Shown: positions 9,171-56,914, numbered from the stretch's first letter. The stretch: 64,000 bases of DNA from an uncultured Acidimicrobiales bacterium (GCA_964562985.1 CAZLWE010000004.1:17338-81337), one strand, 5' to 3'. Notes: generated by a model from the sequence alone, not told the origin. Translations and numbers: made by a program.

Positions 9171-9905
9171 CTACTTGAGGTTGATGCCCTGGCCCTCGAG
9201 GTAGGGCTGCATGTGTGGTCTACTCTCTTTGCCGAGCAGGCCCGACATGTCCGCGCTCCAGGTGCGATCGACTTCGCCATTGGTGCGTTCGAGATAGTAG
9301 GCCCGCATCTGTTCGTCGTAGCTCTCGATGCCCGAGCGATCGTGGGTCTCGTCGTAGGTTTCGTCTTTCAAGGTCACCGACAACGGAAGCCGAGGCTTGA
9401 GTGCCGGATCTTGATCTGGATGTCCGAGACACATGCCGAAGAGCGGGACAACCTGCTCAGGAAGTTGCAGAAGCTCGGTCATCTTGGCTGGATCGTTTCG
9501 GATGCCTCCGATGTAGCAGATGCCGAGGCCGAGCGACTCCGCCGCCACGACCGCACTTTGCGCCGCGATCGCGCAATCGGTGGCAGCGATGATGAAGTGT
9601 TCAGTCATTCCCGAGTGGAACGCGCCGCCAGCCATCTCGCAGGCAACCGACGACCGGTGTAGGTCGGCGCACCACACGAGGAACACCGCAGCGCTCTCCA
9701 CATAGGACTGCCCGCCCGCGAGTTCGGCGATCGCTGCGCGGGTTGCCTCGCTTCGCACCCGTATGACCGTCGCGCCTTGGAGGTTCGACGACGTAGCTGA
9801 GGCGAGACCGGCCGAGACGATTTGTTCGACCGTCTCGTCATCGATCGGTTCTTCGGTGAACTTCCGGATCGAGCGGTGACTACGAAGCAGTTCGATGACA
9901 TCCAT
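9171..9905 (-). CDS. NfsA/Frp-family NADPH-dependent nitroreductase / flavin reductase
   Basis: N-terminal LLRSHRSIRKF motif. The 244-aa size and overall pattern match the oxygen-insensitive NfsA family. Confidence 0.8.
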   Translation of the reverse strand: MDVIELLRSHRSIRKFTEEPIDDETVEQIVSAGLASATSSNLQGATVIRVRSEATRAAIAELAGGQSYVESAAVFLVWCADLHRSSVACEMAGGAFHSGMTEHFIIAATDCAIAAQSAVVAAESLGLGICYIGGIRNDPAKMTELLQLPEQVVPLFGMCLGHPDQDPALKPRLPLSVTLKDETYDETHDRSGIESYDEQMRAYYLERTNGEVDRTWSADMSGLLGKESRPHMQPYLEGQGINLK

Positions 9906-9931
9906 GCCCGCAGGCTAGATGTCCTTTGCCG

Positions 9932-10288
9932 TTACCCGCCGACAAAACCTGCCAGGGCCACGAGCGAACCCGCCTCGTCAGCCTCAACAAAATAGGTGCC
10001 GAGCTGAGCCATTTTCTCACCGTCGGGGCCAGGACCCCCAAAGCTCACAATGGCCTTGGCGTACCCATTGACCTCGTCGACAGAGTTGACCACCGCAGTC
10101 CAACCTGGAGCATTCGCTGCGAATTGGCCGACGTACTCACTGATCGCGTCTACCCCGACCAGACGACCACCACTTCGTGGGTCTGAATAAGTAGCTGTCT
10201 CGCCAAGTGCACCTCGAATGGTCGCGGTTCGAGAACCCGCATCCGTGTGACTCCACGCCGCGAAGAATCGTTCTATCTCTACCTGCAT
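9932..10288 (-). CDS. NTF2/SnoaL-like small protein
   Basis: ATG at 10288 has GAGGGGG upstream. About 118 aa, with an FFAAWS start typical of SnoaL/NTF2-like folds. Function unknown. Confidence 0.45.
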   Translation of the reverse strand: MQVEIERFFAAWSHTDAGSRTATIRGALGETATYSDPRSGGRLVGVDAISEYVGQFAANAPGWTAVVNSVDEVNGYAKAIVSFGGPGPDGEKMAQLGTYFVEADEAGSLVALAGFVGG

Positions 10289-10375
10289 AGTTCCCCCTCG
10301 GGTCAGAGCCCGCCAGTGACACGCCGCAGCGTACGCCAACCGGCTACCGTAGCGCTACGCCGAAGGAGGCCCGAA

Positions 10376-11371
10376 ATGAAATTTGGTTGGCTTGCCAGTC
10401 ATGAGTCGAATCAACCCGAGGTGCTAATCGACCAAACGGTCCGTGCTGAGGAGGTTGGCTTCGACGCGGTCTTTGCTTCCGATCATTTTCATCCCTGGGT
10501 AGACCAGGAATCAGCGTCTGCCTTTGTGTGGAGCTGGTTCGGTGCAGCCGTCGCTCGCACCAAGCACATCGAGTTCGCCACCTCGGTAACCTGCCCACTC
10601 TTCCATTACCACCCAGCGATGGTCGCCCAAGCTGCGGCCACGGTCGATCGCCTGTCCGACGGGCGTTTCTTTCTCGGCGTTGGTACCGGAGAGAACATCA
10701 ACTCCGGCCCGCTTGGCTATCCCTTCCCCGGCTACAAGGAGCGCATTGCCCGGATGGACGAGGCGCTCGAGATCATGCATCGCCTGTTCGATGGAGAGAA
10801 GCTCGATTTTCCCGGCGAGTTCTACACCTGTGATAAGGCCAAGCTCTACAGCCCGCCGGTTTCAGAGGTACCCATATACATGGCTGCTGGCGGCCCGAAG
10901 TCCGCTGCCTTCGCAGGAGCGAACGCCGACGGCCTAATCACGTCCGTGAAGGACCCTGCAGACACGCTCGAACGAGTGATCACGCCGTTCCGTGAAACGT
11001 CAAACGAAGCTGGTCGCGGCGATCTCCCGATCATGGGAACTCGTTGGGTCGTGTGGGCCGATAGCGACGACGAAGCATGGGAAGCCCTCGCTGCCATGCG
11101 CGGCCTTCGGGCGCCGGGTCGTCTCGAAGCGGTAGACCCGATGGTGTTACGCGAGCGCGCTGACGAGATGGACCGTAACGAAATTCTGGAGAAGTACACG
11201 GTGGTGTCCTCAGTCGATCAGATCATCGACGCATACGCACCGCTCGTAACCGACATCGGCGCCGAGTACATCTCAATTCAGATCGCTGCCGTCGACCTCA
11301 TGTCGACGATCGAGATGGTCGGCAATGAGGTTCTACCAGCGTTGCGCGAACTCGAAACGCCTAAGGGCTAG
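10376..11371 (+). CDS. LLM-class F420-dependent oxidoreductase (G6PD-family-like)
   Basis: ATG at 10376 is preceded by GAAGGAGG. The MKFGWLASHE...DHFHPW...FLGVGTGE pattern is that of the luciferase-like F420-dependent family. The upstream extension in the ORF track is antisense overlap. Confidence 0.8.
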   Translation: MKFGWLASHESNQPEVLIDQTVRAEEVGFDAVFASDHFHPWVDQESASAFVWSWFGAAVARTKHIEFATSVTCPLFHYHPAMVAQAAATVDRLSDGRFFLGVGTGENINSGPLGYPFPGYKERIARMDEALEIMHRLFDGEKLDFPGEFYTCDKAKLYSPPVSEVPIYMAAGGPKSAAFAGANADGLITSVKDPADTLERVITPFRETSNEAGRGDLPIMGTRWVVWADSDDEAWEALAAMRGLRAPGRLEAVDPMVLRERADEMDRNEILEKYTVVSSVDQIIDAYAPLVTDIGAEYISIQIAAVDLMSTIEMVGNEVLPALRELETPKG

Positions 11372-11610
11372 CGCAGCCCGAGGAACAGCGACACCAGGCT
11401 GACGAACGTGACGGCGAGCGCGAGGTAGGTGCCAACGTTCTTGGCCTTCTCAATGTTCACCGCCAGAATCGTCAGCTGCCGGCGCATATCGATCATCTCG
11501 CTCCGAAGCGAACCCACCTCACCCAATATGTCGCCGCGAAGACCAGCCATTTCGGCACGCGTCTCATTCAGCCGTGCCTCAATCAAGGTAAGGCGAGCGT
11601 CGTCGAGCAC
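11368..11610 (-). CDS. hypothetical coiled-coil protein with C-terminal TM helix (possibly frameshifted 5' part up to 11711)
   Basis: Heptad-like charged sequence followed by a hydrophobic tail (YLALAVTFVSLVSLFLGL). A protein-like 5' segment lies in another frame upstream (see findings). Confidence 0.5.
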   Translation of the reverse strand: MLDDARLTLIEARLNETRAEMAGLRGDILGEVGSLRSEMIDMRRQLTILAVNIEKAKNVGTYLALAVTFVSLVSLFLGLR

Positions 11611-11707
11611 CTTCTCAGTATCGGTGACGCTTGCGTACTTGTCGAGAGCAGCCTTGATCTGCGCTTGATCCGCGACTCGATTTCTTTGTACTCCTGCTCG
11701 GTGATCG

Positions 11708-12055
11708 TCACGGAGCGCTCTGTTCCGACAAACCCAGACGTGCCCGCTCGAAGATTCGACCGGCCCGCACCCGTTGGGTGGGTTTGGCTACCGCCTCTCC
11801 TACGACTTCGGTTCGACTGGCCGTAGATCCGCCGACCGTGAAATACCGTCGGTTCACCGCACCGAGGACAACCACCGCATCACCCTGGTCGTAGGCCTGC
11901 ACTGATTTGGGCGCATCGTTCCACACCACGGGCACCGACTGTTTGACACCTTCGGTCTCGACCGCGACGTCCCAATTGGTGACGGTCACTCCCGATGCGA
12001 GCGTTCGCTCAGTGGGCTCACTCGACAACATTCCCTGCACAACGACGATGTTCAT
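11708..12055 (-). CDS. single-stranded-DNA-binding (OB-fold) like protein, no acidic tail
   Basis: MNIVVVQGMLSSEP..R.L.SG..V...DV is the typical SSB N-terminal OB-fold pattern. It is 115 aa and lacks the C-terminal acidic tip. Confidence 0.6.
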   Translation of the reverse strand: MNIVVVQGMLSSEPTERTLASGVTVTNWDVAVETEGVKQSVPVVWNDAPKSVQAYDQGDAVVVLGAVNRRYFTVGGSTASRTEVVGEAVAKPTQRVRAGRIFERARLGLSEQSAP

Positions 12056-12168
12056 CGTCTTGCTCCATTTTCATTTTCTGGACACGGGGGAAGTGCTGAT
12101 CGTCAACCTACCGATCGACTGTGACAGTGAACTTGTGCGTGAGGTCCCATCGCGCTGACAATCTGTCT

Positions 12169-12891
12169 ATGACTCCCGCAAGTCACCTCCGGTGGTTCGA
12201 AGAAAACACCGACTTCTTTGCATCGATCCGAACCGACGACTTGACCCTGCCCGTGTCGAGTTGTCCGGGGTGGATAGTGCTCGACCTGCTCAACCATCTG
12301 TCGTTCGGGCTGGGAGCCTGCTATCCGGTTGCAGCATCGACACCGCCCGAAACGCCACCCGAGTCGATCTTTGCAAAGCTCGATCGAGAGCATTGGGTGA
12401 TCGAGGGAAATGACGCGGTGACCTCATTCTCCGCACATATGCGCACATGCCTAAGTGCACTACGGGCCATCGACCCAGACCGCACATGCTGGACGTACGT
12501 GGGTCCGGGAACGGCTTCGTTCTGGTTCCTTCGGGCGGCAGCCGAGACAGCCCTTCACCGCCACGACGCCGAACTCACGCTCGGAATAACGCCCGCCCAG
12601 ATTTCGAACGAGCGCCTGACCGACGGCCTCAACGAAGCACTCAACTTCGCGCTGCCATTCGCCGCGACCAAAATCGGTTCGCCGAAGGGTTCGCTCACGA
12701 TCTCGTGCCCCGATATCGACCTGGAACGCTCCATCGGTTCCGGTGACGGTCACACAGAAATCTCGGCACCGGGACAAGCGATGCTTCTGGCACTATGGGG
12801 ACGCGAACGAGATCACGGACACGTCAGCGGCTCGCAAGAATTAGCTGATGGGTGGCTCTCGCTTGTCGAGAACGCGTTCGCAGGTCGCTGA
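12169..12891 (+). CDS. maleylpyruvate isomerase-family / DinB-like mycothiol-dependent enzyme domain protein
   Basis: ATG at 12169. The N-terminal block (..FFASIRTDDLTLPVSSCPGWIVLDLLNHL) resembles the MDMPI_N/DinB metal-binding domain. Confidence 0.65.
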   Translation: MTPASHLRWFEENTDFFASIRTDDLTLPVSSCPGWIVLDLLNHLSFGLGACYPVAASTPPETPPESIFAKLDREHWVIEGNDAVTSFSAHMRTCLSALRAIDPDRTCWTYVGPGTASFWFLRAAAETALHRHDAELTLGITPAQISNERLTDGLNEALNFALPFAATKIGSPKGSLTISCPDIDLERSIGSGDGHTEISAPGQAMLLALWGRERDHGHVSGSQELADGWLSLVENAFAGR

Positions 12892-12936: not shown

Positions 12937-14016
12937 CTACGTCGAGGAGCCTTCATAGAGCGGGCCATGCTCGATATTGGGAAGCACGTGCTCAGCGAAG
13001 AGGTCGGCTTCTGCGACGTGGGTGTAGCCGCTCAAAATGAACGCTCCCACGCCAACCTCTTGGTAGGCCCGAAGCTTGGCGAGCACCTGGTCGGGGTCGC
13101 CAACTATCGCCGCGCCCGCACCCGAGCGGGCGCGTCCGACGCCGGTCCAAAGGTTCTCCTCGACAAAGCCGTCGTCGGAGGAGGATTCACGCAACTCGTT
13201 CTGGCGAGACACGCCAGCGGACTTGGTGTCGAGGCTCTTCCCACGGATCTTCTCACCCTCTTCGGCATCGAGCTTCGAGAGCAACCGATCCGCAGCAGCG
13301 CGAGCCTCGGCTTCGGTCTCTCGGACGATGACGTGGGCTCGCAGCCCGTACTTCAATTCACGGTCATAGCCCGCGGCGAGTTTGGTCATCTCGGTCACCG
13401 TGTCGCCGACTCCGACGACGGTGTCGGGCCAGGTGAGAAATACGTCGGCATGCTCGGCGGCAGTGTCCTTCGCTGCGGGGCTGAAGCCACCGAAGTAGAA
13501 GGGTGGGCACTTCCCCGACACGGTTCGCATGCGCGGCGGGTCCACAACGAGATCGACGAACTCGCCGTGGTGCTCGACAGACTCGCCGTTGAGGAGCGCC
13601 CGCAGGACGGTCATCCACTCGCGGGTGCGCTGATAGCGGGGTGCCGATTCAAGCGGAGCACCCGGGATGTCGCTCGAGATGATGTTGATCGTGAGTCGAC
13701 CATTTGCCATCTGATCGATGGTGGCCAGCTGGCGGGCGAGCTGGGGCAACCACATCTCCCCCATCCGCACGGCGAGCAGCAGTTGGATCTGCATGGTGTG
13801 CGTCGCGATCGCCGCGGCGAACGATGTCGAATCCATCCCTAGCTGATAGCCCGACGGCAGCAGGACATTGTCATAGCCGAGGGTGTCGGCGGTCTTGACG
13901 ATGTTCGAACAATGCGGCCACGACGATTTCAAGTGGTCCTCTGGAACGCCGAGGTATTCATAGTCATCGTCGCAGAGCGCGCCGAACCATGAAATCTCTA
14001 CTGGTTGATCAGACAT
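12937..14016 (-). CDS. SsuD-type FMNH2-dependent (alkane)sulfonate monooxygenase family protein
   Basis: Start ATG at 14016; the 86-codon extension in the ORF track runs into the upstream AKR gene. Blocks PPFYFGGFS, LTWPD, HVIVRETEAEA, NLWTGVGRARSGAGAAIVGD and FILSGYTH line up with the SsuD blocks I know. Confidence 0.8.
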   Translation of the reverse strand: MSDQPVEISWFGALCDDDYEYLGVPEDHLKSSWPHCSNIVKTADTLGYDNVLLPSGYQLGMDSTSFAAAIATHTMQIQLLLAVRMGEMWLPQLARQLATIDQMANGRLTINIISSDIPGAPLESAPRYQRTREWMTVLRALLNGESVEHHGEFVDLVVDPPRMRTVSGKCPPFYFGGFSPAAKDTAAEHADVFLTWPDTVVGVGDTVTEMTKLAAGYDRELKYGLRAHVIVRETEAEARAAADRLLSKLDAEEGEKIRGKSLDTKSAGVSRQNELRESSSDDGFVEENLWTGVGRARSGAGAAIVGDPDQVLAKLRAYQEVGVGAFILSGYTHVAEADLFAEHVLPNIEHGPLYEGSST

Positions 14017-14071
14017 TTGGACTGAACCCTCTCTGGAAGCGAATCGAAAGTTGTTTGCACGCGGAACCAAG

Positions 14072-14980
14072 TCAAGGGAGCGGTACCCCCTCGCTGGCCT
14101 CGATGAGGTTGTACACATCGTTGCGGTCGAGATGAACGCTCGTGGCCTCGGCCGCGAACACCAGCCGAGCAGGCGTTTGGGTGCCGAGAAGTGCGACCGG
14201 CTTCGACGGGTGGGCCAGTACAAAGGCCACAGCGATCGCCGCACGATCAACGCCTTCGCGTTCGGCCAACTCATCGACGACCGTGAGGAGTTCAGGCCTC
14301 AGGCCCTCACCCGAGAAGAGTCGTCCTCCCGCCATGGGGCTCCATGCGAGGGGAACGACCCCATCGCGCATAGCTCGGTCGAATGTGCCGTCTCGCAGCG
14401 GTTGTGTATGAGCCAACGAATACTCGGGTTGTGTGGACACGATCGGCGCATTCATGTGCGCAGCAAGAGCGTCGTACTGGCCGACGGTGAAGTTGGAGAC
14501 TCCGACCATCGCAATCTTGCCGGCCGCGACCAGCTCGTCGAGCGTGGCAGCAACATCGGCGGGATGCGCGAACATATCCGGGCGGTGAATTTGCCACAGA
14601 TCGATGTGCTCTACGCCAAGGCGACCGAGTGACGCATCGACTGCCGACCGGAGATACTCCGGACTCGAGTCGTACGGCAGCGGCGGCATGATGCCACCCT
14701 TCGTAGCCAAGACCATGCGGTCCCGAAGTTCTGGGGCGGCGGCCAGTACTTCACCGAGTCGTTCCTCGTTTTGCCCGAAGCCCGTACCGCCGTGATCGAG
14801 CCCGTAGACATCGGCCGTGTCGATGAGGTTCATACCGTGGTCAAGGGCCGTCTCGATGAGTTCTTGGTTCTTGGACACGTCGCCCGAAGTAAGGCGCCAC
14901 GTGCCATATCCGAGGGCACCGATGTCGGTACCTGATGCAGAGAATGTGCGATTGGCGAAACTAACGAGGTTGGAAGACAT
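14072..14980 (-). CDS. aldo/keto reductase
   Basis: GYGTWRL...IDTADVYG...LATKGG pattern of the AKR superfamily. It is the first gene of a two-gene operon with the monooxygenase. Confidence 0.85.
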   Translation of the reverse strand: MSSNLVSFANRTFSASGTDIGALGYGTWRLTSGDVSKNQELIETALDHGMNLIDTADVYGLDHGGTGFGQNEERLGEVLAAAPELRDRMVLATKGGIMPPLPYDSSPEYLRSAVDASLGRLGVEHIDLWQIHRPDMFAHPADVAATLDELVAAGKIAMVGVSNFTVGQYDALAAHMNAPIVSTQPEYSLAHTQPLRDGTFDRAMRDGVVPLAWSPMAGGRLFSGEGLRPELLTVVDELAEREGVDRAAIAVAFVLAHPSKPVALLGTQTPARLVFAAEATSVHLDRNDVYNLIEASEGVPLP

Positions 14981-15013
14981 GGTTCTGATGGTAGCTCAAC
15001 TAGACTTGCTGAT

Positions 15014-15027
15014 TGCAAACGTTTACA
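15014..15027. promoter_or_regulatory. LacI-family operator candidate TGCAAACGTTTACA
   Basis: 14-bp near-perfect palindrome in the AT-rich divergent AKR / Gfo-Idh-MocA intergenic region. It differs by 1 nt from the site at 22174-22187. Confidence 0.7.
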
Positions 15028-15067
15028 TTATTGATAAATCAACGACAACACGAGAGTCAAATTTTTT

Positions 15068-16201
15068 ATGACTGACACACACCTTCGGTATGGCGTCATC
15101 GGTACTGGGATGATGGGCGTCGAACACATTCTCAATATCAAGGCTCTCGACAACACCGCGGTGACGGCCATTTGCGACACCGATGAGATCTCTCGCAAAG
15201 CTGGCCTCGAAGCTGCAGGCCCAGATGCGACCGTGTACGAGGACTATCGCGATCTACTCGCCGACGAGACCGTCGACGCGGTCGTAGTTGTCACCCCCAA
15301 CTTCACCCACATCGACGTCATGCGCAACGTGATCTCCTCCGGCAAACATGTGCTCTGTGAAAAGCCGCTGTGCATCACCGCGGCCGAATGCCAAACGCTG
15401 ATCGACGAGTCAGATGGCTACGACGGCGTCATCTGGGTCGGCCTCGAATATCGCTACATGCCCGCCGTCGAGGCACTGATCAAGGAGGTTCGAAACGGCT
15501 TCGTCGGCGATCCGAAGATGGTGGCGATTCGCGAGCATCGATTCCCGTTCCTGGTCAAGGTCGGCGACTGGAATCGTTTCAGCGCGAATACCGGTGGAAC
15601 GCTGGTCGAGAAGACCTGCCACTACTTCGACCTTATGAACCTCATCCTCGACGAGCGCCCATCCCAAGTGTTCGCATCGGGAGCCCAAGACGTGAACCAC
15701 CTGGACGAGACCTACGACGGAAAGCAAAGCGACATCTTGGACAACGCCTTCGTGATCATCGACTACCCGAGCGGCAAACGTGCGCTGCTCGATCTCTGCA
15801 TGTTCGCCGAGGCAACTCGTGATCAAGAAGAGCTTTCAGTTGTGGGCGACAAGGGGAAGGTCGACGCACGGATCCCCACGTCGGAGCTGCACCTTGGGAC
15901 CCGCTCAGGCGAGGGCATCCCCGATATCGGCCAGGTAGAAACCCGAAAAATAACCAACGACGCGATCCAACATGTCGGTCTCCACCACGGAGCGAGCTAT
16001 CTCGAGCACGTCGACTTTGCAGCTGCCATCCAAGCTCACCGCGCAGCTGGTGGCGGCGAAGCCGGTGCGGCGGCGGTTGCTGAGCTCGGCACCCTGGTAA
16101 GCCTCGAAGACGGAATGTGGTCCGTCGCGATGGGCGAAGCCGCCCACCGTTCCATCGAAGAAAACCGCCCAGTCTCCCTGCGCGAAATCATCGGGGTCTG
16201 A
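15068..16201 (+). CDS. Gfo/Idh/MocA family oxidoreductase
   Basis: N-terminal Rossmann motif YGVIGTGMMGVEHI and the EKP motif (LCEKPL). 377 aa. The stop codon lies inside the first REP-like palindrome. Confidence 0.85.
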   Translation: MTDTHLRYGVIGTGMMGVEHILNIKALDNTAVTAICDTDEISRKAGLEAAGPDATVYEDYRDLLADETVDAVVVVTPNFTHIDVMRNVISSGKHVLCEKPLCITAAECQTLIDESDGYDGVIWVGLEYRYMPAVEALIKEVRNGFVGDPKMVAIREHRFPFLVKVGDWNRFSANTGGTLVEKTCHYFDLMNLILDERPSQVFASGAQDVNHLDETYDGKQSDILDNAFVIIDYPSGKRALLDLCMFAEATRDQEELSVVGDKGKVDARIPTSELHLGTRSGEGIPDIGQVETRKITNDAIQHVGLHHGASYLEHVDFAAAIQAHRAAGGGEAGAAAVAELGTLVSLEDGMWSVAMGEAAHRSIEENRPVSLREIIGV

Positions 16202-16250
16202 CCCCTTCCGTCCCCATATGAGACGCGCGGGGTCAGACCCACTTCGTCCC
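16193..16250. repeat. REP-like doublet (left flank)
   Basis: GGGTCTGACCCC (16194-16205) and GGGGTCAGACCC (16229-16240) are exact reverse complements separated by 23 nt. Each is followed by a (T/C)TTC(C)GTCCC tail. Confidence 0.75.
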
Positions 16251-16345
16251 TCTTGTCACACCACCCGGCTACGTTGGCCTTTCGCTCGTTGCGATACCTC
16301 GGAAGCATCACGTTTCCCTCCATTCAATTTCTGGAATCGTGAACA

Positions 16346-17275
16346 ATGCCAAGACGCCCGAGAATCGACTACCCCGGCGCCTACCACCACGTAATGAACA
16401 GAGGCGCCGACCGTCAGGCCACATTTCGCTCCGAACGCGATCACAAGGACTTCACCTGTTTGTGGGCCGAAGCCGTGATTCGCTTTGGGATCGTTGTCCA
16501 CGCCTATGCCTGGATGGGGAACCATTACCACGCCCTAGTGATGTCACCCGACGCACAGCTCAGTGAAACCCTTCGGTGGATTGGCCATGTCTACACCCAG
16601 CGTTTCAACAAGCGCCACGGCCGAGATGGCGCTTTGTTTCGAGGGCGATTCCACTCGGTTTTGATCGACAGCGACGCATATCTACATCGAGTAGCTCGCT
16701 ACATCGAGCGGAACCCTCTCGAAGCGGGTCTTGCCACCCCAGAAAGCCTCGTTCGGTATAAGTGGTCAAGCCTTCAGCATTATCTAAACCCAACCTCGTC
16801 CGACTGGGTGGAGACCAAACCCTTACTCTCTCGACTTGGGTCCCGGCACGAGTACCTCCGACATGTGTTGTCGGATCATTCAGACGACGTGTTGGAGGGC
16901 TTTTATAATCGAGAAGAACAACCGCTTTTGGTGCTCGGCGACCAAGAGTTCGTTGACTCATTGCCCTGCGAAGTTGCCGGACTGAACCCAACCGTGGGTC
17001 TTACACACGTCTCGTTAGCAGAGATTGACTTTGCGCTCAGTCAGGTACGAGCGCTGCGGATCATCGGCACCAGAAGCCGTGGTCTAGCGGTCGAACTCGG
17101 ACAAAGACTTGCTGGCGCTACAAGACGCGAACTGGCCGACCACTACAACTTCAAGACGGTAAGTTCAGTCTCATCAGCAATCTCACGCAGCAAAGCGGAC
17201 CCCAACACCGCCGAAACGAGGCGGGCGATAATGAGCTACTTGGGGCGATCCAGCCAAGGACCGCTTGCGAGCTAG
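16346..17275 (+). CDS. Y1 (HUH) transposase, IS200-like/REP-associated type, with C-terminal DnaA-C-like HTH
   Basis: HUH motif in GNHYHALVM and a catalytic Tyr region RYIERNPLEAG. The C-terminal segment (RRELADHYNFKTVSSVSSAISR) resembles the DnaA domain IV HTH. Confidence 0.8.
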   Translation: MPRRPRIDYPGAYHHVMNRGADRQATFRSERDHKDFTCLWAEAVIRFGIVVHAYAWMGNHYHALVMSPDAQLSETLRWIGHVYTQRFNKRHGRDGALFRGRFHSVLIDSDAYLHRVARYIERNPLEAGLATPESLVRYKWSSLQHYLNPTSSDWVETKPLLSRLGSRHEYLRHVLSDHSDDVLEGFYNREEQPLLVLGDQEFVDSLPCEVAGLNPTVGLTHVSLAEIDFALSQVRALRIIGTRSRGLAVELGQRLAGATRRELADHYNFKTVSSVSSAISRSKADPNTAETRRAIMSYLGRSSQGPLAS

Positions 17276-17283
17276 AGCCGCAG

Positions 17284-17332
17284 GGGGTCTGACCCCAAAC
17301 GGCTCACTTCGGGACGGAGAGGGTCTGACCCC
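17284..17332. repeat. REP-like repeats (right flank)
   Basis: GGGGTCTGACCCC at 17284-17296 and GGGACGGAGAGGGTCTGACCCC at 17311-17332. Confidence 0.75.
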
Positions 17333-17344
17333 ATTGATCTGGGT

Positions 17345-17379
17345 CTGGTTGGCGAGGCTTTGAAGACCTCGCCAACCAG
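17345..17379. terminator. 13-bp perfect hairpin between convergent genes (bidirectional terminator candidate)
   Basis: CTGGTTGGCGAGG-ctttgaaga-CCTCGCCAACCAG lies between the transposase stop (17275) and the permease stop (17423). There is no U-tract on either strand. Confidence 0.5.
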
Positions 17380-17422
17380 GACCTGTGAAGGGGGGAACAG
17401 TGATGCGCTAGGGATCGCTTGG

Positions 17423-18379
17423 CTAACCCTTGACCGAACCAGCCAGTAGGCCGCGGACGAAGTAGCGCTGGAGACTGAAGAAGACAACGATCGGTACGAA
17501 CGCCTGGACGAATGCGCCCGCCGTCAGAAGATGTTCGGTATCGGTGAAGTCGCCCGACAGGTTCGCGATGCGAACCGTCGTAGGTGCATCCGAACCAATG
17601 CCGAGCATCGTGTTAGCGATCAGAAAGTCATTCCACGTCCACAAGAACTGGAAGATCCCGAACGCGGCCAGCGCCGGAACCGACAGCGGAAGCACCAGGC
17701 GCCAGAAGATCCCGAAATGATTCGCTCCGTCGATCTTGGCGGACTCGAAGATGTCCTTAGGCAGCTGCGAGATGTAGTTGTGCAACAAGAAGATCGCAAA
17801 CGGCATCGCGAAGCCAGTGTGGGTGAGCCATACGGAGGCGGATGTGCCAGCAAGGTTGTTCAACGGCACCAACGTGAGTGTCTTGTCGGTGAAAGGAACT
17901 GTGAGGTGAGCCCCACCAAAGGGATCACCGTCGCCGAACAGCTGAAGCAGCGGGATCAAGGCAACTTGGAGCGGCAACGCCAGCAATGAAACCGTCACGA
18001 TGAAGAGCCACTTGCGGCCTTTGAAGTCAATCCATGCAAAGCCGTAGGCGGCAAAGGCAGCGAACGCGATCGGGATGATTGTTGCGGGAATCGCAATGGA
18101 AAGGCTCGTGACCAGCGACGCGGTCAGGCTGCTGGTAGTTCCCGCCGAAAGCACCTCTTGGTAGTTCTCTAGCGTGATCTCGGGTTCGAAGATGATGTTC
18201 CAGAAGGCGTTTCGTCGCTGTCCGTCGCGACTACGGAACGAGTTAACGGCCAAGCTCAGATTCGGGATAGTCCAAATGACGACGATCGCCCACATCGCCC
18301 ACGTCGGAACGTCACTCAATCGCTTATAGAGACGATCGCCCAACCCGTCGCCAGATGAGGGATCGGTTACCGAGCTCAT
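17423..18379 (-). CDS. carbohydrate ABC transporter permease (MalG-like)
   Basis: Six-TM pattern with the EAA-type loop FESAKIDGANHFGIFWRLVLP. Overlaps the upstream permease by 4 nt. Confidence 0.85.
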   Translation of the reverse strand: MSSVTDPSSGDGLGDRLYKRLSDVPTWAMWAIVVIWTIPNLSLAVNSFRSRDGQRRNAFWNIIFEPEITLENYQEVLSAGTTSSLTASLVTSLSIAIPATIIPIAFAAFAAYGFAWIDFKGRKWLFIVTVSLLALPLQVALIPLLQLFGDGDPFGGAHLTVPFTDKTLTLVPLNNLAGTSASVWLTHTGFAMPFAIFLLHNYISQLPKDIFESAKIDGANHFGIFWRLVLPLSVPALAAFGIFQFLWTWNDFLIANTMLGIGSDAPTTVRIANLSGDFTDTEHLLTAGAFVQAFVPIVVFFSLQRYFVRGLLAGSVKG

Positions 18380-20526
18380 GCGTGTCCCTTCTGCAGGCTG
18401 TAGATGTTGTAGACCATGACGGGCAATACGAGCAGGAACATCACGATCGCAATCGAGGCGCCGAAGCCGACGTTTCCAAGCTGGAATGACTCGGTGATCA
18501 TCTGGTTCGCAAGCACGTCGTTACCGAAGGTTCCCCGAAGGCCGGCAACAGCAACGATGTCGAAGACTTTGGTGACCTGCACGATGAGCGTGGTGACCAC
18601 CACGCCGATCGTCGGAAAGATCGTTGGCAGGGTCACCCGGAAGAAGATGTCGGATTCGGTCGCTCCATCCACCTTTGCTGACTCAATGAATTCTTGCGGG
18701 ACGGCCTTGATCGCCGCCGAGATGATCACCATGGCGAAGCCGGTCTGAATCCAAATCAAGATCAACATAAGCCAGACGTTGTTGAAAGGCTGCTCGGTCA
18801 AGAAGGACACCGTCTCGGGCACCAACGCGCCATCAGCATCGAAAGTGAATCCGCCTAGCCGGGGCCCGATGAAGCGATAGAGGAGCCACCCCGAAACGAC
18901 CAACCCGATGGACATTCCAGTGAAAGCCCGATCACTCGTTGCCCGCCTGAAGATTCCCCAAGCGAAAGCTGCGGTCAGCGCTACGAACAGCACGATCATC
19001 AAAATGCGGGGAAGGCCCGAGTTGCTGAGTTCGCCAAGCGCGACCCACACAGCATTCAATGTGCCGGTCTGACTCTGAGAAATCGGACGAGCTTGGAACT
19101 GCAATCGCCACACGATTGACGCGCCGACAAAGGAGATAGCCATGGGCATAAAGATCAGACTCTTGGCAAGGTTCTCGCCGAACTTCGCTCGATCGGATAA
19201 CACCGCGATCGCCGTACCAGCCACCGTCGAGACCGTTACTACAGTGATCACCCACCAAATGTTGTTGAAGAACGTTCCTCGCACAACCGACAAGGCAGCG
19301 AACGACGCCAGGAACAGCGCGAAGAAGACCGCTCCGATAGTGGTTGGGCTCTTCTCAATTGAGGCGTGGCCATTGCGACGAATTCCACCCAACACCGCAA
19401 CGATTGCCGCGATCGCTAACAGGACCAACGCCGCATAGAACAATCGCGAAGTGAAGAAGGCGGCCCAGTTTGAGGTGTCGAAGGAGTCCCGTGCGGTGAA
19501 CAAGCGTTGGTAGTTCGCGAATTGCACGAATTCATCACCGTTGCGATCTTTGAAGGAGAGGATTCCAGTTCGAACCGTCGGGATTACCAGAGCGATAGTC
19601 AGGAATGTGAGGGCGGGGCCGAGGAAGATGAAGCCTCGAGCCCGACTGTCGAAGAGGGCGCGTTCCTTGTGACTCGGTGCGAGCTGCCATCCAAAGCCGC
19701 CCATGATCAGCACGAGCGGCACAACCGTAGAGATGTACGGCGCGTCGACCACTACGGCAAATGGGGAGAGTAGCCAGCCACCGATCGCCCAGCCGAGACC
19801 CGCTCCGATCAAGGCTCCACGTGCTGGCTCACCAGATGACCGGGTGAGCGCTGCCCCAATTGCGCCCACCACCAGCGTCGCCACGATGATGGCGATCCAA
19901 TTGGGGTCTGGCCGTTGCAAGATTCGTGTGTTCGACGCGATGAGCCAACCGGCGACGCCTCCGAGCACGGCTGCCACAGCGAAGCGAGCGAAACGGTTGG
20001 GGATCGACTTCATCACGTAGGCACCGGCGCCAAACAGCAGCGCGCCGATAAGTGGCCATTCGATATGACCAAGGAACCCGGTCCCCACCGCGTCGTTCAG
20101 GAGCAGGGGATCGGAATCAGCGAAGATCGGATCGACTTCGGAGAACAACGGGCCAACCGATCGGTTCCCTCGAAGGATTCCGAAGAGACCGGCGCCGAGG
20201 GTTGCCCCAACGAGGCCGGAGAAGTTGTTCCATCGTTGGCGGGCCTGGTTCACAAAGAGGTTCAGCCCGACCCACAGGCCAATACAGAGGGTCACCGAGA
20301 TCAGCACGGTGGCGAGCATTCGCAGCACCCGTTCGAAGTCGGCGCTACCGGTTAGGCCGCTGAATCCTCCGGCTGCAACGAGCAGGAGGATTACGACACC
20401 CACACCAGCGGCGAAAATGAGACCCGCCTTCAGCGGACGCTCTCGCGACAGTCGCAGAAGGCCGTACAGCGAAGCAATGATGAGGGCGACCAGGACGATG
20501 GCGCCGAGCAACTGCATGGGAAGCAT
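18376..20526 (-). CDS. carbohydrate ABC transporter permease (MalF-like core) with ~300-aa polytopic N-terminal extension
   Basis: The C-terminal part carries the EAA loop IESAKVDGATESDIFFRVTLP. The N-terminal ~300 aa are additional hydrophobic helices. I prefer ATG at 20526 (or 20517), because the TTG at 20586 lies inside an intergenic hairpin. Confidence 0.75.
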   Translation of the reverse strand: MLPMQLLGAIVLVALIIASLYGLLRLSRERPLKAGLIFAAGVGVVILLLVAAGGFSGLTGSADFERVLRMLATVLISVTLCIGLWVGLNLFVNQARQRWNNFSGLVGATLGAGLFGILRGNRSVGPLFSEVDPIFADSDPLLLNDAVGTGFLGHIEWPLIGALLFGAGAYVMKSIPNRFARFAVAAVLGGVAGWLIASNTRILQRPDPNWIAIIVATLVVGAIGAALTRSSGEPARGALIGAGLGWAIGGWLLSPFAVVVDAPYISTVVPLVLIMGGFGWQLAPSHKERALFDSRARGFIFLGPALTFLTIALVIPTVRTGILSFKDRNGDEFVQFANYQRLFTARDSFDTSNWAAFFTSRLFYAALVLLAIAAIVAVLGGIRRNGHASIEKSPTTIGAVFFALFLASFAALSVVRGTFFNNIWWVITVVTVSTVAGTAIAVLSDRAKFGENLAKSLIFMPMAISFVGASIVWRLQFQARPISQSQTGTLNAVWVALGELSNSGLPRILMIVLFVALTAAFAWGIFRRATSDRAFTGMSIGLVVSGWLLYRFIGPRLGGFTFDADGALVPETVSFLTEQPFNNVWLMLILIWIQTGFAMVIISAAIKAVPQEFIESAKVDGATESDIFFRVTLPTIFPTIGVVVTTLIVQVTKVFDIVAVAGLRGTFGNDVLANQMITESFQLGNVGFGASIAIVMFLLVLPVMVYNIYSLQKGHA

Positions 20527-20562
20527 CCCCGGTACTAGGAAGTGAAAAAGAAGACCGGAGGG

Positions 20563-20627
20563 GGCGGGGGCTGACCCGAAGGTCAAACCCCCGCCATATC
20601 CGGAGAGTCAGCCTGACACTGTCAGGC
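20563..20627. promoter_or_regulatory. two intercistronic stem-loops between SBP and permease genes
   Basis: GGCGGGGG..(TGACC-cgaa-GGTCA)..CCCCCGCC at 20563-20595 and GCCTGAC-act-GTCAGGC at 20611-20627. Their position is typical of mRNA-stabilising or attenuating hairpins after SBP genes. Confidence 0.5.
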
Positions 20628-20638
20628 CGAAGCCAGAG

Positions 20639-22126
20639 TTATGGCCAGAAGGTGTCGATTTCGGCGGTGCCTTCCTCGACGGTGGTGTCACCATTCACGA
20701 TCTGGGTACCAACTTCCCAGAATGCGTTGTTCACGTCGCCACCAATGAGGTCCGAAGCGTCGAATCGGAAGATGTCAGCATCCTGAAGGATCGACACGAA
20801 GTTCGACTCGAGCGGGTTCCACAGTGATGGATCGGCGCCGGTGTTTGCGGTTACGAAGCCCGAAAGTACGAGTTCTTCGCTGTCACCCTGCAGGAGTGCC
20901 TGCTGAGCGGTTTGACGTGCGTTGGCGTACTCAGCGCTTGCGAAGTACTCCATGACAGCCCATACCTCTGGACGATCGTTGAATGCGCCAACGAAGGTTC
21001 CGCCACCGAGGACTGGACGATCGGTGCCGTTGCCTGGGAAGAAGAACACGTCGACTGCACCTTCACTGCCATCAGCAACCGGGGTGCCTTCTGGGAAGAA
21101 GGAGGCGAAGAACGATGCCTGGCGGTGCATGAAGCAGTCGCCGTTGACGAGAGGCTCAGCGTTGTCACGGAACGAGGTGGTAGCGATGCTGCCACCTGCG
21201 GCGAAGACGGCACCTGGCTTGTTCCACTCATCGATGATGATCTGGAAAGCATTGGTGAGCTCTGGGCTCGAGAACAGAAGTTCTCCAGCTACCCAAGCGT
21301 CGTAGTTCTCCGGAGTGGTTGTACGGAGCATGATGTCCTCAACCCAGTCGGTGAATGGCCAACCGGTTGCGCCACCGGACTCGATACCGACACACCATGG
21401 GGTGTTGCCGTCAGCGATCATCTGGTCGCTAAGTGCGAACAGGTCGTCGAGGGTGGTTGGAATGTCGTAGCCGGCGGCTTCGAAGCGTGCTGGCTGGTAC
21501 CAAACGAGCGACTTGAGGTCGTTCTTGTTCGGAAGACCGAACTGGGTGCCGTCGAAGTTCGCGAAGTTGATCGCGTCTGGGGTCCAGTTCGCCTGTGCAG
21601 CCTCGATGATCGACGCAGGTACTTCTTGGACGTGTCCAGCGTCTGCGGCATCACGAAGGTTGCCTGGCTGAGGGAACACGGAGATGTCCGGGTTGGTGCC
21701 AGCTTCGAGCTGAATATTGATTTCGGTCTCCCAGTCGGCTGAGCCCTGGTAGATGATCGAAATGCCGTTGGCGTTACCGAACTCCTGCAGTGCTTGGTTC
21801 AGTGCACCAGCTTCGGCTTCGGATCGCTCTGGACCAGAAACGGTCACAACGGGAACAGCGTCGTCGTCGCCTTCACCGGCTTCGGCGGCAGCAGCCTCAG
21901 CCGCTTCAGCGCGGGCTTCTGCGTCCGCAGCAGCTGCTTCGGCCTCTGCCTGAGCAGCTTGTGCTTCAGCTACCGCATCACTTGCTGCGTCGTCGCCGCC
22001 CTCGGCTGCATCGGCCACGGCGTCTGCCGCACCTTCAACAGTGTCCGTTGCCCCACCACATGCCGCGGCGATCAGTGACAACGCGAACAGCGACGCAAAC
22101 AGCTTCATCCATTTGCTTGTCTTCAC
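20639..22126 (-). CDS. sugar ABC transporter substrate-binding lipoprotein (family 1)
   Basis: Lipobox LIAAACGG, an Ala/Glu-rich linker, then a family-1 extracellular solute-binding body. GTG at 22126 has GGGGGAG upstream; ATG at 22141 and 22108 are alternatives. Confidence 0.85.
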   Translation of the reverse strand: MKTSKWMKLFASLFALSLIAAACGGATDTVEGAADAVADAAEGGDDAASDAVAEAQAAQAEAEAAAADAEARAEAAEAAAAEAGEGDDDAVPVVTVSGPERSEAEAGALNQALQEFGNANGISIIYQGSADWETEINIQLEAGTNPDISVFPQPGNLRDAADAGHVQEVPASIIEAAQANWTPDAINFANFDGTQFGLPNKNDLKSLVWYQPARFEAAGYDIPTTLDDLFALSDQMIADGNTPWCVGIESGGATGWPFTDWVEDIMLRTTTPENYDAWVAGELLFSSPELTNAFQIIIDEWNKPGAVFAAGGSIATTSFRDNAEPLVNGDCFMHRQASFFASFFPEGTPVADGSEGAVDVFFFPGNGTDRPVLGGGTFVGAFNDRPEVWAVMEYFASAEYANARQTAQQALLQGDSEELVLSGFVTANTGADPSLWNPLESNFVSILQDADIFRFDASDLIGGDVNNAFWEVGTQIVNGDTTVEEGTAEIDTFWP

Positions 22127-22173
22127 GGGTCTCCCCCTCATATCATTTGCCCGAATCCTTATGAATACAGGCC

Positions 22174-22187
22174 TGCAAACGTTTGCA
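22174..22187. promoter_or_regulatory. LacI-family operator TGCAAACGTTTGCA
   Basis: Perfect 14-bp palindrome 48 bp upstream of the SBP start, in an AT-rich gap just downstream of the LacI gene. Confidence 0.75.
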
Positions 22188-22287
22188 GAACCGAAACACT
22201 ACAGCGCACTGCGCCGAGTGTCACATCGCGAAAGCGAATTTCTTTCCTTTTGACGCTTCGGGGTTACGCCAAAACGGAGATTAGCGG

Positions 22288-23310
22288 TTATGACCGCTGA
22301 GTCGACTGTCGTACGACGAGGTGAGGGGGTTCGAGGGCAGATTGGGTAGACACCTCACCGTCCCCGTCTACGACAGCGAGGAGGCTCTGTGCTGCCAACA
22401 TGCCGAGGTTTCGTGGGACCAACCGCACTGTGGTGAGACCCGCCATCTCGGCAATTTCGTGGTCATCCACGCCAACGATCGCTATGTCCTCGGGAATGCG
22501 GAGTTGTCGATCTTGCACCGCACGAAGTGCACCGAAAGCCATCTCGTCAGACATCACAAAGACGGCTGTAGGAGGATCGGCAAGATCGAGCAACCGCTCC
22601 ATCGCCTGACGGCCGCCCTCGGCGGTGAATCGGCCGGATTGCTCTAGTTCATGATCGAGGGATATTCCCGCAGCCGCCAAGGCTCCGGTAAACCCAGCGA
22701 GCCGAAGACCAGGGACAGAGAACGCCAACGGGTGATTTGGTTGACCCGAAATAAGTGCGACCCTCGTGTGACCAAGCGCTAGGAGATGCTCAGTCGCCAG
22801 AAAGCCGACGCGGTAGTCGTCCACAACAACGCTCGGAAAGTGTGCGGTCTTGAAACCTACGGTCACGAGCCGAACGCCGGCATTCGCGAGTTCGCTCGCC
22901 GCATCCTCGGAGATGTTGAGGTCGACCAGGATGAGTCCGTCGACCCGCTTCTCGACTTGCCCAAGGTCGTTCAGAAAATCATCGCGGCTGCCAGGGTCTT
23001 CGAGCGGGTGAGCGATCGCCTCGTAACCGTTCCCATTGAGATACTCGATCGCTCCGGCAAGAAAACGCGAGAAATACCAGCCGTCGACAGTAGGCGTCGC
23101 GATCTGCACCAAGTTTGTGCGGCCCGTAGCGAGACGCGCTGCGCTGGGATCGGCGCGATAACCCATCTCCTCGGCGATGGCCTGCACCCGTTCCTTGGTC
23201 GAAGCAGCGACGTTGGGAAGGCCTCGTAGCGCTCGCGAGACGGTCGCGACAGAGACCCCTGCCGCTCTAGCGACATCCTCGATCGATGGGCTACGCCGAC
23301 GTTCATTCAT
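22288..23310 (-). CDS. LacI family transcriptional regulator
   Basis: N-terminal HTH SIEDVARAAGVSVATVSRALRG followed by a periplasmic-binding-protein-like sugar-binding core. 340 aa. Confidence 0.9.
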   Translation of the reverse strand: MNERRRSPSIEDVARAAGVSVATVSRALRGLPNVAASTKERVQAIAEEMGYRADPSAARLATGRTNLVQIATPTVDGWYFSRFLAGAIEYLNGNGYEAIAHPLEDPGSRDDFLNDLGQVEKRVDGLILVDLNISEDAASELANAGVRLVTVGFKTAHFPSVVVDDYRVGFLATEHLLALGHTRVALISGQPNHPLAFSVPGLRLAGFTGALAAAGISLDHELEQSGRFTAEGGRQAMERLLDLADPPTAVFVMSDEMAFGALRAVQDRQLRIPEDIAIVGVDDHEIAEMAGLTTVRLVPRNLGMLAAQSLLAVVDGDGEVSTQSALEPPHLVVRQSTQRS

Positions 23311-33835: not shown

Positions 33836-33850
33836 CTACGCGCACCAACC

Positions 33851-33960
33851 AATCTGTGGTCCGATTCCGTTACTATCGCCCGGTTTTCGACCACAGGTCC
33901 CAAAGCCAGCCAATCTGTGGTCGGTGGCCGTTACTATCGCCCGGTTTTCGACCACAGATT
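33851..33960. repeat. tandem pair of ~50-bp hairpin elements (AATCTGTGGTC...CTATCG...GACCACAGATT)
   Basis: Copy A is at 33851-33896 and copy B at 33912-33960. They share the loop core CCGTTACTATCGCCCGGTTTTC. Stems are 8-11 bp. A third copy lies at 62872-62919. Confidence 0.8.
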
Positions 33961-33968
33961 CCTTAGCG

Positions 33969-53187: not shown

Positions 53188-53265
53188 ACCGCCTGAACTC
53201 CGAACTCGCGAACAACCTATGACAAGCTGTTGCGACATCTGTTCGTCACTCGTGGAGCTGAGCCC

Positions 53266-55545: not shown

Positions 55546-56435
55546 CCCTCACGATCGCGACCTCGCTCGATCAGGTTCTGGCCGATCTGGCCGCAGGTGC
55601 CCGTCCCATTGCAGGCGGGACCGACCTGGTCGTCGGCGCCCGCCAGCACAAGTCGGCCATGCCCGAAAGCCTCGTGGCAATCGACCGCCTCCAAGAGCTC
55701 GCTCAAATCGACCGGACCGACACCCACACGTCGATCGGTGCGGGCGTGACCCACGCTCGGCTTATGACCGACGACGCTGTTGTAGCTGATTTCACCGCCA
55801 TCGCAGACGCCGCTGCGCTGGTCGGGTCTCCGGCGACACGCAATGTCGGAACTCTAGGCGGCAACGTGATGAACGGATCGCCGGCGATGGACACCGGCGC
55901 ACCGCTGGTCGTGCTCGGAGCGGTCGCGGAGCTGGCGAGCACCGAAGGGACTCGATCGGTATCGCTCGACGAGCTGTGGCTTGGCCCCGGCACGACGAGC
56001 GCTCGTAGCGACGAGCTCTGCACGGCACTAACCATCCCGAACCAGACGGGCTCCTCGGGCTCGGCATACGTGCGTCTCGAATATCGCCGAGCGATGGAGA
56101 TCGCTGTGGTCGGTGCGGCCGCGAACGTCACCCTCAACAACGATGGCTCGGTGGAAAGTGCTCGCGTAGCGCTGACTGCAGTCGCACCAACGATCCTCGC
56201 GGTTGATGGACTCGATCGACTGGCTGGTCTCCATCCGGATGAGGCCGCCGAGGCTGCCTCGGCGGCCGCGTCGGAACAAGCCACTCCAATCAGTGATCTG
56301 CGGGCGAGCGATCGCTACCGACGACACACGATTGGGGTCATGGCAAGACGCGCTGTTGAAGCGGCAGCTCGCCGAGCAGCCGGAGAAGACATCGCAGTAC
56401 CCGTGAATCGAGCACTCGGAATTGGAGCGTCCTGA
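55542..56435 (+). CDS. XDH-family FAD-binding medium subunit
   Basis: IAGGTDLVVGARQ and GTLGGN motifs (CoxM/FAD_binding_5 type). Overlaps the large-subunit gene by 4 nt. Confidence 0.85.
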   Translation: MTLTIATSLDQVLADLAAGARPIAGGTDLVVGARQHKSAMPESLVAIDRLQELAQIDRTDTHTSIGAGVTHARLMTDDAVVADFTAIADAAALVGSPATRNVGTLGGNVMNGSPAMDTGAPLVVLGAVAELASTEGTRSVSLDELWLGPGTTSARSDELCTALTIPNQTGSSGSAYVRLEYRRAMEIAVVGAAANVTLNNDGSVESARVALTAVAPTILAVDGLDRLAGLHPDEAAEAASAAASEQATPISDLRASDRYRRHTIGVMARRAVEAAARRAAGEDIAVPVNRALGIGAS

Positions 56436-56914
56436 TGTCTGGAAAGAACGCAGTAGAGCTCACGGTCAACGGCGCGACCTACCCCGTGTCTATCTCTACC
56501 GATCGCACGCTTTCGACCGTGCTGCGAAACGAACTGGGCCTGACCGGAACCAAGGAAGGCTGCGACGACTGTGAGTGCGGCGCCTGCATGGTGTTGCTCG
56601 ACGGACAGCCGATCAACTCATGTTCCTACCTCGCAGCCCAGGCGCAAGGCCGTGACATCACCACTGTGGAGGGTCTCGCAGACGGTGACGACCTCCATCC
56701 GCTCCAACGCAACATCTTGGCTACCGGCGGCGTTCAGTGCGGCTTTTGTACCCCGGGCATGTTGATGTCGGCAACTGCCCTACTTGCGGACAACCCCGCA
56801 CCCACGGACGACGAGATTCGTCTCGGACTATCGGGCAATCTGTGCCGTTGTACCGGCTACGCCCGCATTCTGTCCGCGGTCGCTGTCACCGCCGTCGAAC
56901 TGCGGAACGATTAG
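56435..56914 (+). CDS. (2Fe-2S)-binding small subunit
   Basis: Cys clusters C..C.CGAC and QCGFCTPG...CRCTGY. 159 aa. Confidence 0.9.

Follow-up and report, generated by a model that had tools for sequence, protein, structure and literature searches.

Does a sulfonate monooxygenase gene that lies beside a sugar importer take part in the breakdown of a sulfonated sugar, or is it an ordinary sulfur-scavenging gene with coincidental neighbours? The question is raised by a locus at positions 12937-23310 of a 64-kb stretch of DNA (hereafter the window; G+C content ~60%) from an uncultured aquatic Acidimicrobiales bacterium. Here the genes for a monooxygenase dependent on reduced flavin mononucleotide (FMNH2), an aldo/keto reductase (AKR) and a Gfo/Idh/MocA-type enzyme accompany those for the binding protein and permeases of a sugar ATP-binding cassette (ABC) importer and for a LacI-family regulator. 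An initial annotation had read the locus as a regulon for sulfosugar desulfonation resembling the sulfo-ASMO pathway and had suggested that it could be an undescribed variant; every open reading frame (ORF) that it named is present where it had been placed.

We conclude that the locus is probably a sulfoquinovose (SQ) catabolic cluster of the sulfo-SMO (sulfo-ASMO) type. Sulfoquinovose is the sulfosugar of plants and algae, and the gene set, under the control of LacI, most likely imports SQ, strips its sulfonate and converts the sugar to glucose. This reading draws on homology and on the conservation of key residues, gene order and operators; from these we infer the substrates and cofactors, the inducer, and where the ATPase and FMNH2 come from. 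The core of the regulon as first proposed was upheld, namely a monooxygenase and an AKR that resemble SmoC and SmoB, together with a sugar ABC importer and one LacI operator common to both promoter regions, but the identity given to the Gfo/Idh/MocA enzyme and the degree of novelty had to be revised. The pathway is already known from proteobacteria: what is new is the lineage that carries it, with the understanding of its chemistry unchanged, and the lineage-specific parts are the transporter and the regulator.

The monooxygenase and the aldo/keto reductase

The gene at 12937-14016 (minus strand) encodes a protein with a Pfam Bac_luciferase domain (luciferase-like monooxygenase, LLM), predicted to be a SmoC-like FMNH2-dependent SQ monooxygenase. 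In a search of the PDB it scored 348 bits against SmoC of Agrobacterium tumefaciens (AtSmoC, 7OLF) and 347 bits against SmoC of Rhizobium oryzae (RoSmoC, 7OH2), both of them SQ monooxygenases (PMC8795539), compared with 218 bits for MsuD, 197 for SsuD and 100 for SfnG. Its identity to AtSmoC is 49.6%, as against 36-37% to SsuD and MsuD. When the protein was scanned with HMMER over 1.84 billion cluster representatives, the full-length matches fell into two classes, an upper one with scores of 315 bits or more at 48-62% identity and a lower one that did not exceed 221 bits or 40% identity. A phylogenetic comparison with SmoC, SsuD, MsuD and SfnG had been suggested as a check on the assignment, and the neighbour-joining tree separated the window protein, along with the two SmoC landmarks, from SsuD and MsuD in 100/100 bootstraps (the exact split was recovered in 78/100), which places the protein outside the SsuD/MsuD group and on the SmoC side. 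Two further traits are specific to SmoC, an N-terminal SWFxALCxDDYxYLGVP motif and the lack of a 6-residue loop found in SsuD and MsuD. By its sequence, then, the monooxygenase is a relative of the SQ monooxygenase SmoC and groups with the characterised members.

Seven RoSmoC residues to which binding of the FMN phosphate and the sulfonate is ascribed (Y136, S189, W206, R236, H238, Y341 and H343) all have identical counterparts in the window protein (Y128, S179, W196, R226, H228, Y331 and H333), but the same residues are present in MsuD and SsuD and thus do not prove specificity for SQ. They belong to what the protein has in common with the SsuD/SsuE and MsuD systems, together with the LLM TIM-barrel fold and the FMNH2/O2 chemistry. 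It could accordingly be argued that the LLM/AKR pair is an ordinary alkanesulfonate monooxygenase system of the SsuD/MsuD type, serving to scavenge sulfur, and that its sugar-related neighbours are there by coincidence. The source databases do label the homologues as alkanesulfonate monooxygenases, and the best NCBIfam model is that of SsuD. However, the protein scores far below the cutoffs of the SsuD models (TIGR03565, 267 bits against a cutoff of 518; PRK00719, 257 bits against 510), and the SmoC scores exceed those of MsuD or SsuD by 130-150 bits. The reported absence of ssuABC and ssuE was borne out by a Pfam sweep of the whole window, and no neighbours of the ssuABC/ssuE type are conserved across 80 related loci, in which the conserved partners are an AKR and a sugar importer. 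This explanation is already contradicted by the data and we give it next to no credence.

On the same strand and separated from smoC by a 55-bp gap lies the gene for the AKR (14072-14980, minus strand; Pfam Aldo_ket_red), which would act as a SmoB-like, NADPH-dependent 6-oxo-glucose reductase. The comparison with SmoB that had been called for identified SmoB as its best solved relative (7BBY/7BBZ, 152 bits, 39% identity). The SmoB residues D71, Y76, K104, H151, R152, W232, F241, T284 and R289 correspond to D54, Y59, K94, H132, R133, W213, F222, T267 and R272 of the window protein, which therefore keeps the catalytic tetrad, Arg152, Trp232, Phe241 and the ligands of the NADPH 2'-phosphate, Thr284 and Arg289 (SmoB numbering).

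A sulfoquinovosidase homologue of family GH188

Two of the differences from the Agrobacterium system that had been listed at the outset were the lack of a GH31 sulfoquinovosidase and the presence of an extra Gfo/Idh/MocA enzyme. There is indeed no GH31 gene in the window, but both differences vanish once the Gfo/Idh/MocA protein (15068-16201, plus strand; Pfam GFO_IDH_MocA, with the Rossmann domain PF01408) is compared with solved structures. A phmmer search of the PDB returned ArSqgA (8QC3, 318 bits), FlSqgA (8QC2, 300 bits) and 8ZN9 (296 bits), with the next match at 120 bits. Since 8QC3 and 8QC2 are the founding NAD+-dependent sulfoquinovosidases of GH188 (PMC10755693), and the window protein is 45% identical to ArSqgA, we assign it by homology as an SqgA-like member of this family; the glycosidase step is thus predicted to be present in a non-GH31 form.

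Residue conservation points in the same direction. In ArSqgA the sulfonate is bound by Arg166, Lys172 and the backbone amide of Leu170, and SQ is contacted by Lys107, Tyr136, Glu189, His193 and His321 (PMC10755693). All of these named residues (K107, Y136, R166, L170, K172, E189, H193 and H321) align to identical residues in the window homologue (K99, Y128, R158, L162, K164, E181, H185 and H306). The protein has no signal peptide, so its glycoside substrate would have to be imported first. The sqgA gene is transcribed divergently from smoB, and it is this GH188 homologue that would provide the sulfoquinovosidase of a sulfo-SMO cluster, GH188 being a published alternative to the GH31 enzyme SmoI.

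Conservation of the locus in relatives

The 80 related loci were collected in one scan of GTDB species genomes and the window proteins were mapped onto their ORFs; neighbour counts for the transporter, LacI and SqgA refer to the 61 loci whose flanks reach 8 kb or more. The exact monooxygenase sequence was also found on JGI and Logan metagenome contigs. The closest named relatives (70-94% identity) are almost all Acidimicrobiia, comprising metagenome-assembled genomes (MAGs) of Acidimicrobiales and Ilumatobacteraceae and the isolate Ilumatobacter nonamiensis YM16-303. The AKR-monooxygenase pair had been expected to stay together beside sugar transporters, and it does: a SmoB-like gene adjoins the SmoC-like gene in 77 of the 80 loci, and the same binding protein and permeases are found in 47/61. 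In 34 of those 61 loci a LacI homologue is found at the corresponding place, and SqgA is present in 22.

Two layouts recur among the relatives. In 24 loci the small permease gene leads directly into smoB, giving a single co-directional LacI-SBP-permease-permease-smoB-smoC array (SBP, solute-binding protein); the isolate I. nonamiensis YM16-303 (locus L072) is one of them. The layout of the window, a split array with two operators, is common to its closest relatives (L005-L014 and L022).

SmoC-like genes with 77-85% identity also occur in MAGs binned as Verrucomicrobiales, Chthoniobacterales, Deltaproteobacteria, Gammaproteobacteria and Azotimanducaceae (L008, L013, L015, L027 and L045), and three of these (L008, L013 and L027) also have the Acidimicrobiia-type transporter array. 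Mis-binning is probably the cause, recent transfer being the less likely one.

The LacI regulator and its putative operators

A LacI-family repressor (22288-23310, minus strand; Pfam LacI HTH and Peripla_BP_3) is encoded by the first gene of the array. The initial annotation had pointed to a 14-bp LacI palindrome shared by the AKR/Gfo and the binding-protein promoters; both copies are real and lie at the positions that had been given. The putative operator O1, TGCAAACGTTTGCA (22174-22187), is located 33 bp upstream of the start of the binding-protein gene, and the putative operator O2, TGTAAACGTTTGCA (15014-15027), falls in the 87-bp divergent sqgA/smoB promoter region. They are the sole sites in the window at three mismatches or fewer, and both are in promoter regions. 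As each site matches once per strand there are four matches, and four or more were reached in 12/100 shuffles. The number of operators is thus not beyond chance, and the evidence lies in their placement in two promoter regions and in their conservation. An operator-like palindrome is found near the start of the binding-protein gene in 32 of the 42 relatives having that gene, and in the equivalent divergent sqgA/smoB region in 11 of the 16 relatives with that layout. In loci with smoBC joined to the transporter operon, the site precedes the binding-protein gene. A scan for sigma-70 promoters and terminators gave fewer sites than in shuffles.

The transporter

The binding protein (500 aa; 20639-22141, minus strand) has zero Pfam matches. 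It is a lipoprotein, with a LIAAAC lipobox at the end of its signal peptide and an Ala/Glu-rich linker thereafter, and a PDB search with a 13-orthologue profile relates it to family-1 (CUT1-like) sugar binding proteins (a xylo-oligosaccharide-binding protein, 3VXB and AcbH; E 1e-17). We also considered whether it is of the SmoF type. This was rejected, SmoF (7OFY/7NBZ) not being among the 60 best PDB matches of the profile (the weakest of which has an E-value of ~0.01) nor listed in a single-sequence PDB search at E-values up to 1. The ligand would be SQ-glycerol and/or SQ.

Two permease genes follow. The MalG-type permease (17423-18379, minus strand; BPD_transp_1, with GlcU, UgpE and MalG as best NCBIfam models) is 52-94% identical in relatives. 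The MalF-type permease is encoded at 18376-20517 (minus strand) within an ORF that extends to 20586; its start is probably at 20517, giving 713 aa, as annotated on an identical metagenome contig. Its match to BPD_transp_1 is weak and confined to the C-terminal part (residues ~537-724). The N-terminal extension of ~300 residues (window 19552-20517), with ~8 membrane helices predicted by a hydropathy scan, matches no Pfam family and is kept in the loci of 49 relatives at 28-65% identity. It might serve a separate function, such as sulfite handling or sensing. A TauE-like sulfite exporter fused to the permease was tried as a candidate for this region, but the match was weak (E 0.007; 16 bits against a cutoff of 32.6) and was reproduced in only 1/17 orthologues, so that it was treated as spurious. 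The binding-protein and permease genes are 121 bp apart, and this gap contains two G+C-rich hairpins at about 20563-20628 (GGCCTGACAGTGTCAGGC; GGCGGGGGTTTGACC..GGGTCAGCCCCCGCC), which could serve as an intra-operon attenuator or an mRNA stabiliser setting the ratio of binding protein to permease.

Neither tblastn with a MalK-type ATPase nor the Pfam sweep found such a gene in the window, and the MalK/MsiK-type ATPase must therefore be encoded elsewhere in this organism. In 43 of the related loci an ATPase of this type (ABC_tran and OB_MalK) lies just 3' of smoC, mostly on the opposite strand (for example at 5843-7111 of L051).

The importer and LacI might instead constitute a system for the general uptake of alpha-glucosides or oligosaccharides, to which smoBC and sqgA are merely adjacent under a shared regulator, with SQ entering the cell by another route. 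Among solved structures, the closest relatives of the binding protein do bind neutral oligosaccharides (xylo-oligosaccharides, acarbose/galactose and raffinose). Moreover, a GH13 alpha-amylase-family gene, alpha-glucosidase-like, stands beside LacI in 28 relatives (for example at 13023-14654 of L076, and in L072), which leaves room for a broader alpha-glucoside role of the transporter, and the homologous GH13 protein of a sulfo-SMO cluster in Marinovum acts broadly as an alpha-glucosidase but has no sulfoquinovosidase activity (bioRxiv 10.1101/2023.03.31.535182). The gene order, however, speaks for a dedicated transporter. The permease gene runs straight and co-directionally into smoB in the 24 relatives described above, the transporter accompanies smoBC in most of the 61 loci, the split arrays carry a second copy of the operator at the sqgA/smoB promoter, and no other transporter is conserved near smoBC. 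We consider a general uptake system quite improbable, and retain the reading in which the transporter serves SQ catabolism. The occurrence of a GH13 gene beside sulfo-SMO genes recurs in two phyla.

Proposed pathway

In the pathway that we propose, the lipoprotein binding protein (20639-22141) and the two permeases would bring in SQ-glycerol and/or SQ, powered by an unlinked ATPase of the MalK/MsiK type. The cytoplasmic NAD+-dependent GH188 sulfoquinovosidase (15068-16201) would then free SQ from its glycoside. The SmoC-like monooxygenase (12937-14016) would use FMNH2 and O2 to cut the C-S bond, yielding sulfite and 6-oxo-glucose, and the latter would be reduced to glucose by the SmoB-like AKR (14072-14980) with NADPH. 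The LacI repressor (22288-23310), acting on the two near-identical 14-bp palindromes, would repress the transporter operon and the divergent sqgA/smoBC promoters, and its release would presumably be brought about by SQ or SQ-glycerol, that is, by an SQ-derived effector. FMNH2 would be supplied by a reductase encoded elsewhere.

With regard to the last step, the NfsA/Frp-like gene had been put forward as the nearest flavin-reductase candidate. The gene (9171-9905, minus strand) does encode an NADPH:FMN oxidoreductase of the NfsA type (a nitroreductase; NCBIfam NfsA equivalog, 283 bits against a cutoff of 223). It lies 3 kb from smoC, with four unrelated genes in between, and an NfsA gene was found near the cluster in none of the relatives. 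As a dedicated flavin reductase it was consequently rejected, given its distance and its lack of conservation; it is probably a non-dedicated enzyme and stays a candidate donor of FMNH2 only. No SmoA/SsuE-type flavin reductase was found within the window. The block between the NfsA gene and smoC (9171-12891) also holds a SnoaL-like gene, a second LLM gene (within 10247-11371), two small ORFs and a gene for an MDMPI_N (mycothiol-type) protein. The second LLM, SnoaL and MDMPI genes were rejected as parts of the pathway, having been seen only on contigs of the same organism.

How firmly is the substrate identified?

Several observations weigh against the assignment of the locus to SQ. Identity to the characterised proteins is moderate (SmoC 49.6%, SqgA 45% and SmoB 39%), and the clade of the window monooxygenase neighbours the proteobacterial SmoC clade, without being nested within it. 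For the AKR the margin is also moderate, SmoB scoring 152 bits and E. coli YdhF 126 bits, and a 9-residue loop that in SmoB carries the glucose-contacting Lys120 is deleted. The binding protein and SmoF are unrelated beyond their common fold class. To these are added the residues that SmoC shares with SsuD and MsuD and the GH13 neighbours, both mentioned above. A flavin reductase, an ATPase and a sulfite exporter or oxidase were all absent from the 64 kb, where the Pfam sweep covered ssuABC, ssuE, GH31, TauE, Flavin_Reduct, sulfite dehydrogenase and the MalK-type ATPase and found none of them. Furthermore, the enzymes, the binding protein and the regulator of the Acidimicrobiia clade have been assigned from sequence. 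The main residual doubts concern the identity of the substrate and the specificity of the transporter for SQ.

These same features can be taken to mean that the enzyme logic is that of the sulfo-SMO pathway and that the substrate is another sulfonated sugar or glycoside (for example another 6-sulfo-hexoside), not SQ or SQ-glycerol. The SmoC-like protein stands in a separate clade, about 49% identical to the characterised SmoC enzymes; the binding protein is of another type than SmoF, the AKR lacks the Lys120 loop, and no SmoC-SQ complex exists from which the specificity residues could be defined. On the other hand, the ArSqgA residues that contact O2, O3 and O4 of SQ and its sulfonate are all kept in the GH188 homologue. 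Among natural sulfosugars SQ is the most abundant by a wide margin, and published GH188 members sit in SQ clusters of five pathway types (PMC10755693). We therefore regard another sulfosugar as unlikely, and SQ as the probable substrate.

Comparison with known systems

One close parallel is the smoABCDEFGHI cluster of A. tumefaciens C58 (Sharma et al. 2022, PMC8795539), with which the locus has in common an adjacent smoB and smoC in that order, a binding-protein-dependent ABC importer and an SQ-glycosidase in one regulon; the predicted products, glucose and sulfite, are also the same. The regulator is LacI here and the GntR-type SmoD in Agrobacterium, the glycosidase is an NAD+-dependent GH188 homologue instead of the GH31 enzyme SmoI, and the binding protein is not of the SmoF type. 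The MalF-type permease has an additional membrane domain of ~300 residues, the cluster lacks both the SmoA flavin reductase and the ATPase (SmoE), and the host is a Gram-positive Acidimicrobiia bacterium. Among these, the LacI regulator, the very large permease, the lack of an ATPase gene in the window and the lack of a flavin reductase in the cluster had been recognised in the initial annotation, and all four proved to be real.

Clusters that combine sulfo-SMO genes with GH188, for example those of Roseobacter-clade bacteria (Kaur et al. 2023, PMC10755693), have the same enzyme content, with GH188 together with SmoB and SmoC and no GH31, and the named SQ-contacting and sulfonate-binding residues of ArSqgA are kept here, whereas the phylum, the regulator and the lineage of the transporter differ. 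With sulfo-SMO clusters in which GH188 replaces GH31 already published (PMC10755693), and with clusters of this pathway noted in Actinomycetota in 2026, to call the locus an undescribed variant was too strong. The supplementary list of GH188 members in PMC10755693 includes many entries from Acidimicrobiia and Ilumatobacter. A 2026 survey in ISME J, which identified clusters by SmoB and SmoC within 10 ORFs of each other (the two are adjacent in the window), mentions sulfo-SMO clusters in Actinomycetota in one sentence, and a review of January 2026 still gives sulfo-ASMO as restricted to alpha- and beta-Proteobacteria. Our literature search on sulfoquinovose and Acidimicrobiia found no description, in text, of an Acidimicrobiia architecture or of its operators.

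The catalogue of organisms that turn over SQ in water is still being drawn up. The locus and its 80 relatives provide a concrete conserved Acidimicrobiia architecture, with a cultured carrier (I. nonamiensis), a candidate operator and a new candidate family of SQ binding proteins, so that growth and binding experiments, and the annotation of metagenomes, can be targeted precisely. As a broader and more tentative suggestion, one that falls slightly short of an even chance in our judgement, planktonic and sediment Acidimicrobiia (Ilumatobacteraceae and their relatives) might form a large guild of complete SQ mineralisers, with lineage-specific import through a non-SmoF binding protein and an extended permease, LacI control, and FMNH2 from a housekeeping reductase.

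An inserted element and other genes of the window

A gene not mentioned in the initial annotation is located between the sqgA gene and the permease operon. It encodes a Y1 transposase-like protein of 309 aa (16346-17275, plus strand) that matches Y1_Tnp and, below the NCBIfam cutoff, the REP-associated tyrosine transposase model. The gene is part of an inserted element (16187-17338, plus strand) bounded by 65-nt inverted repeats at 16187-16251 and 17274-17338, the first of which overlaps the stop codon of sqgA. Each repeat contains two GGGGTCAGACCC palindromes, which within the 64 kb are confined to these repeats. Four relatives (L005, L010, L012 and L014) have a Y1 gene with 41-45% identity at the corresponding position. 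The element looks like a unit of a REP-associated tyrosine transposase (RAYT) with its repetitive extragenic palindromic (REP) sequences, and lies outside the pathway.

Farther along the window, two tandem fusions of DAO and GCV_T domains, each of ~820 aa and resembling dimethylglycine/sarcosine dehydrogenases (31361-36413), suggest the catabolism of methylated amines (compounds of the glycine betaine type). Finally, a three-subunit molybdopterin/FAD/[2Fe-2S] dehydrogenase of the CoxLMS / xanthine dehydrogenase family is encoded at 53230-56914.

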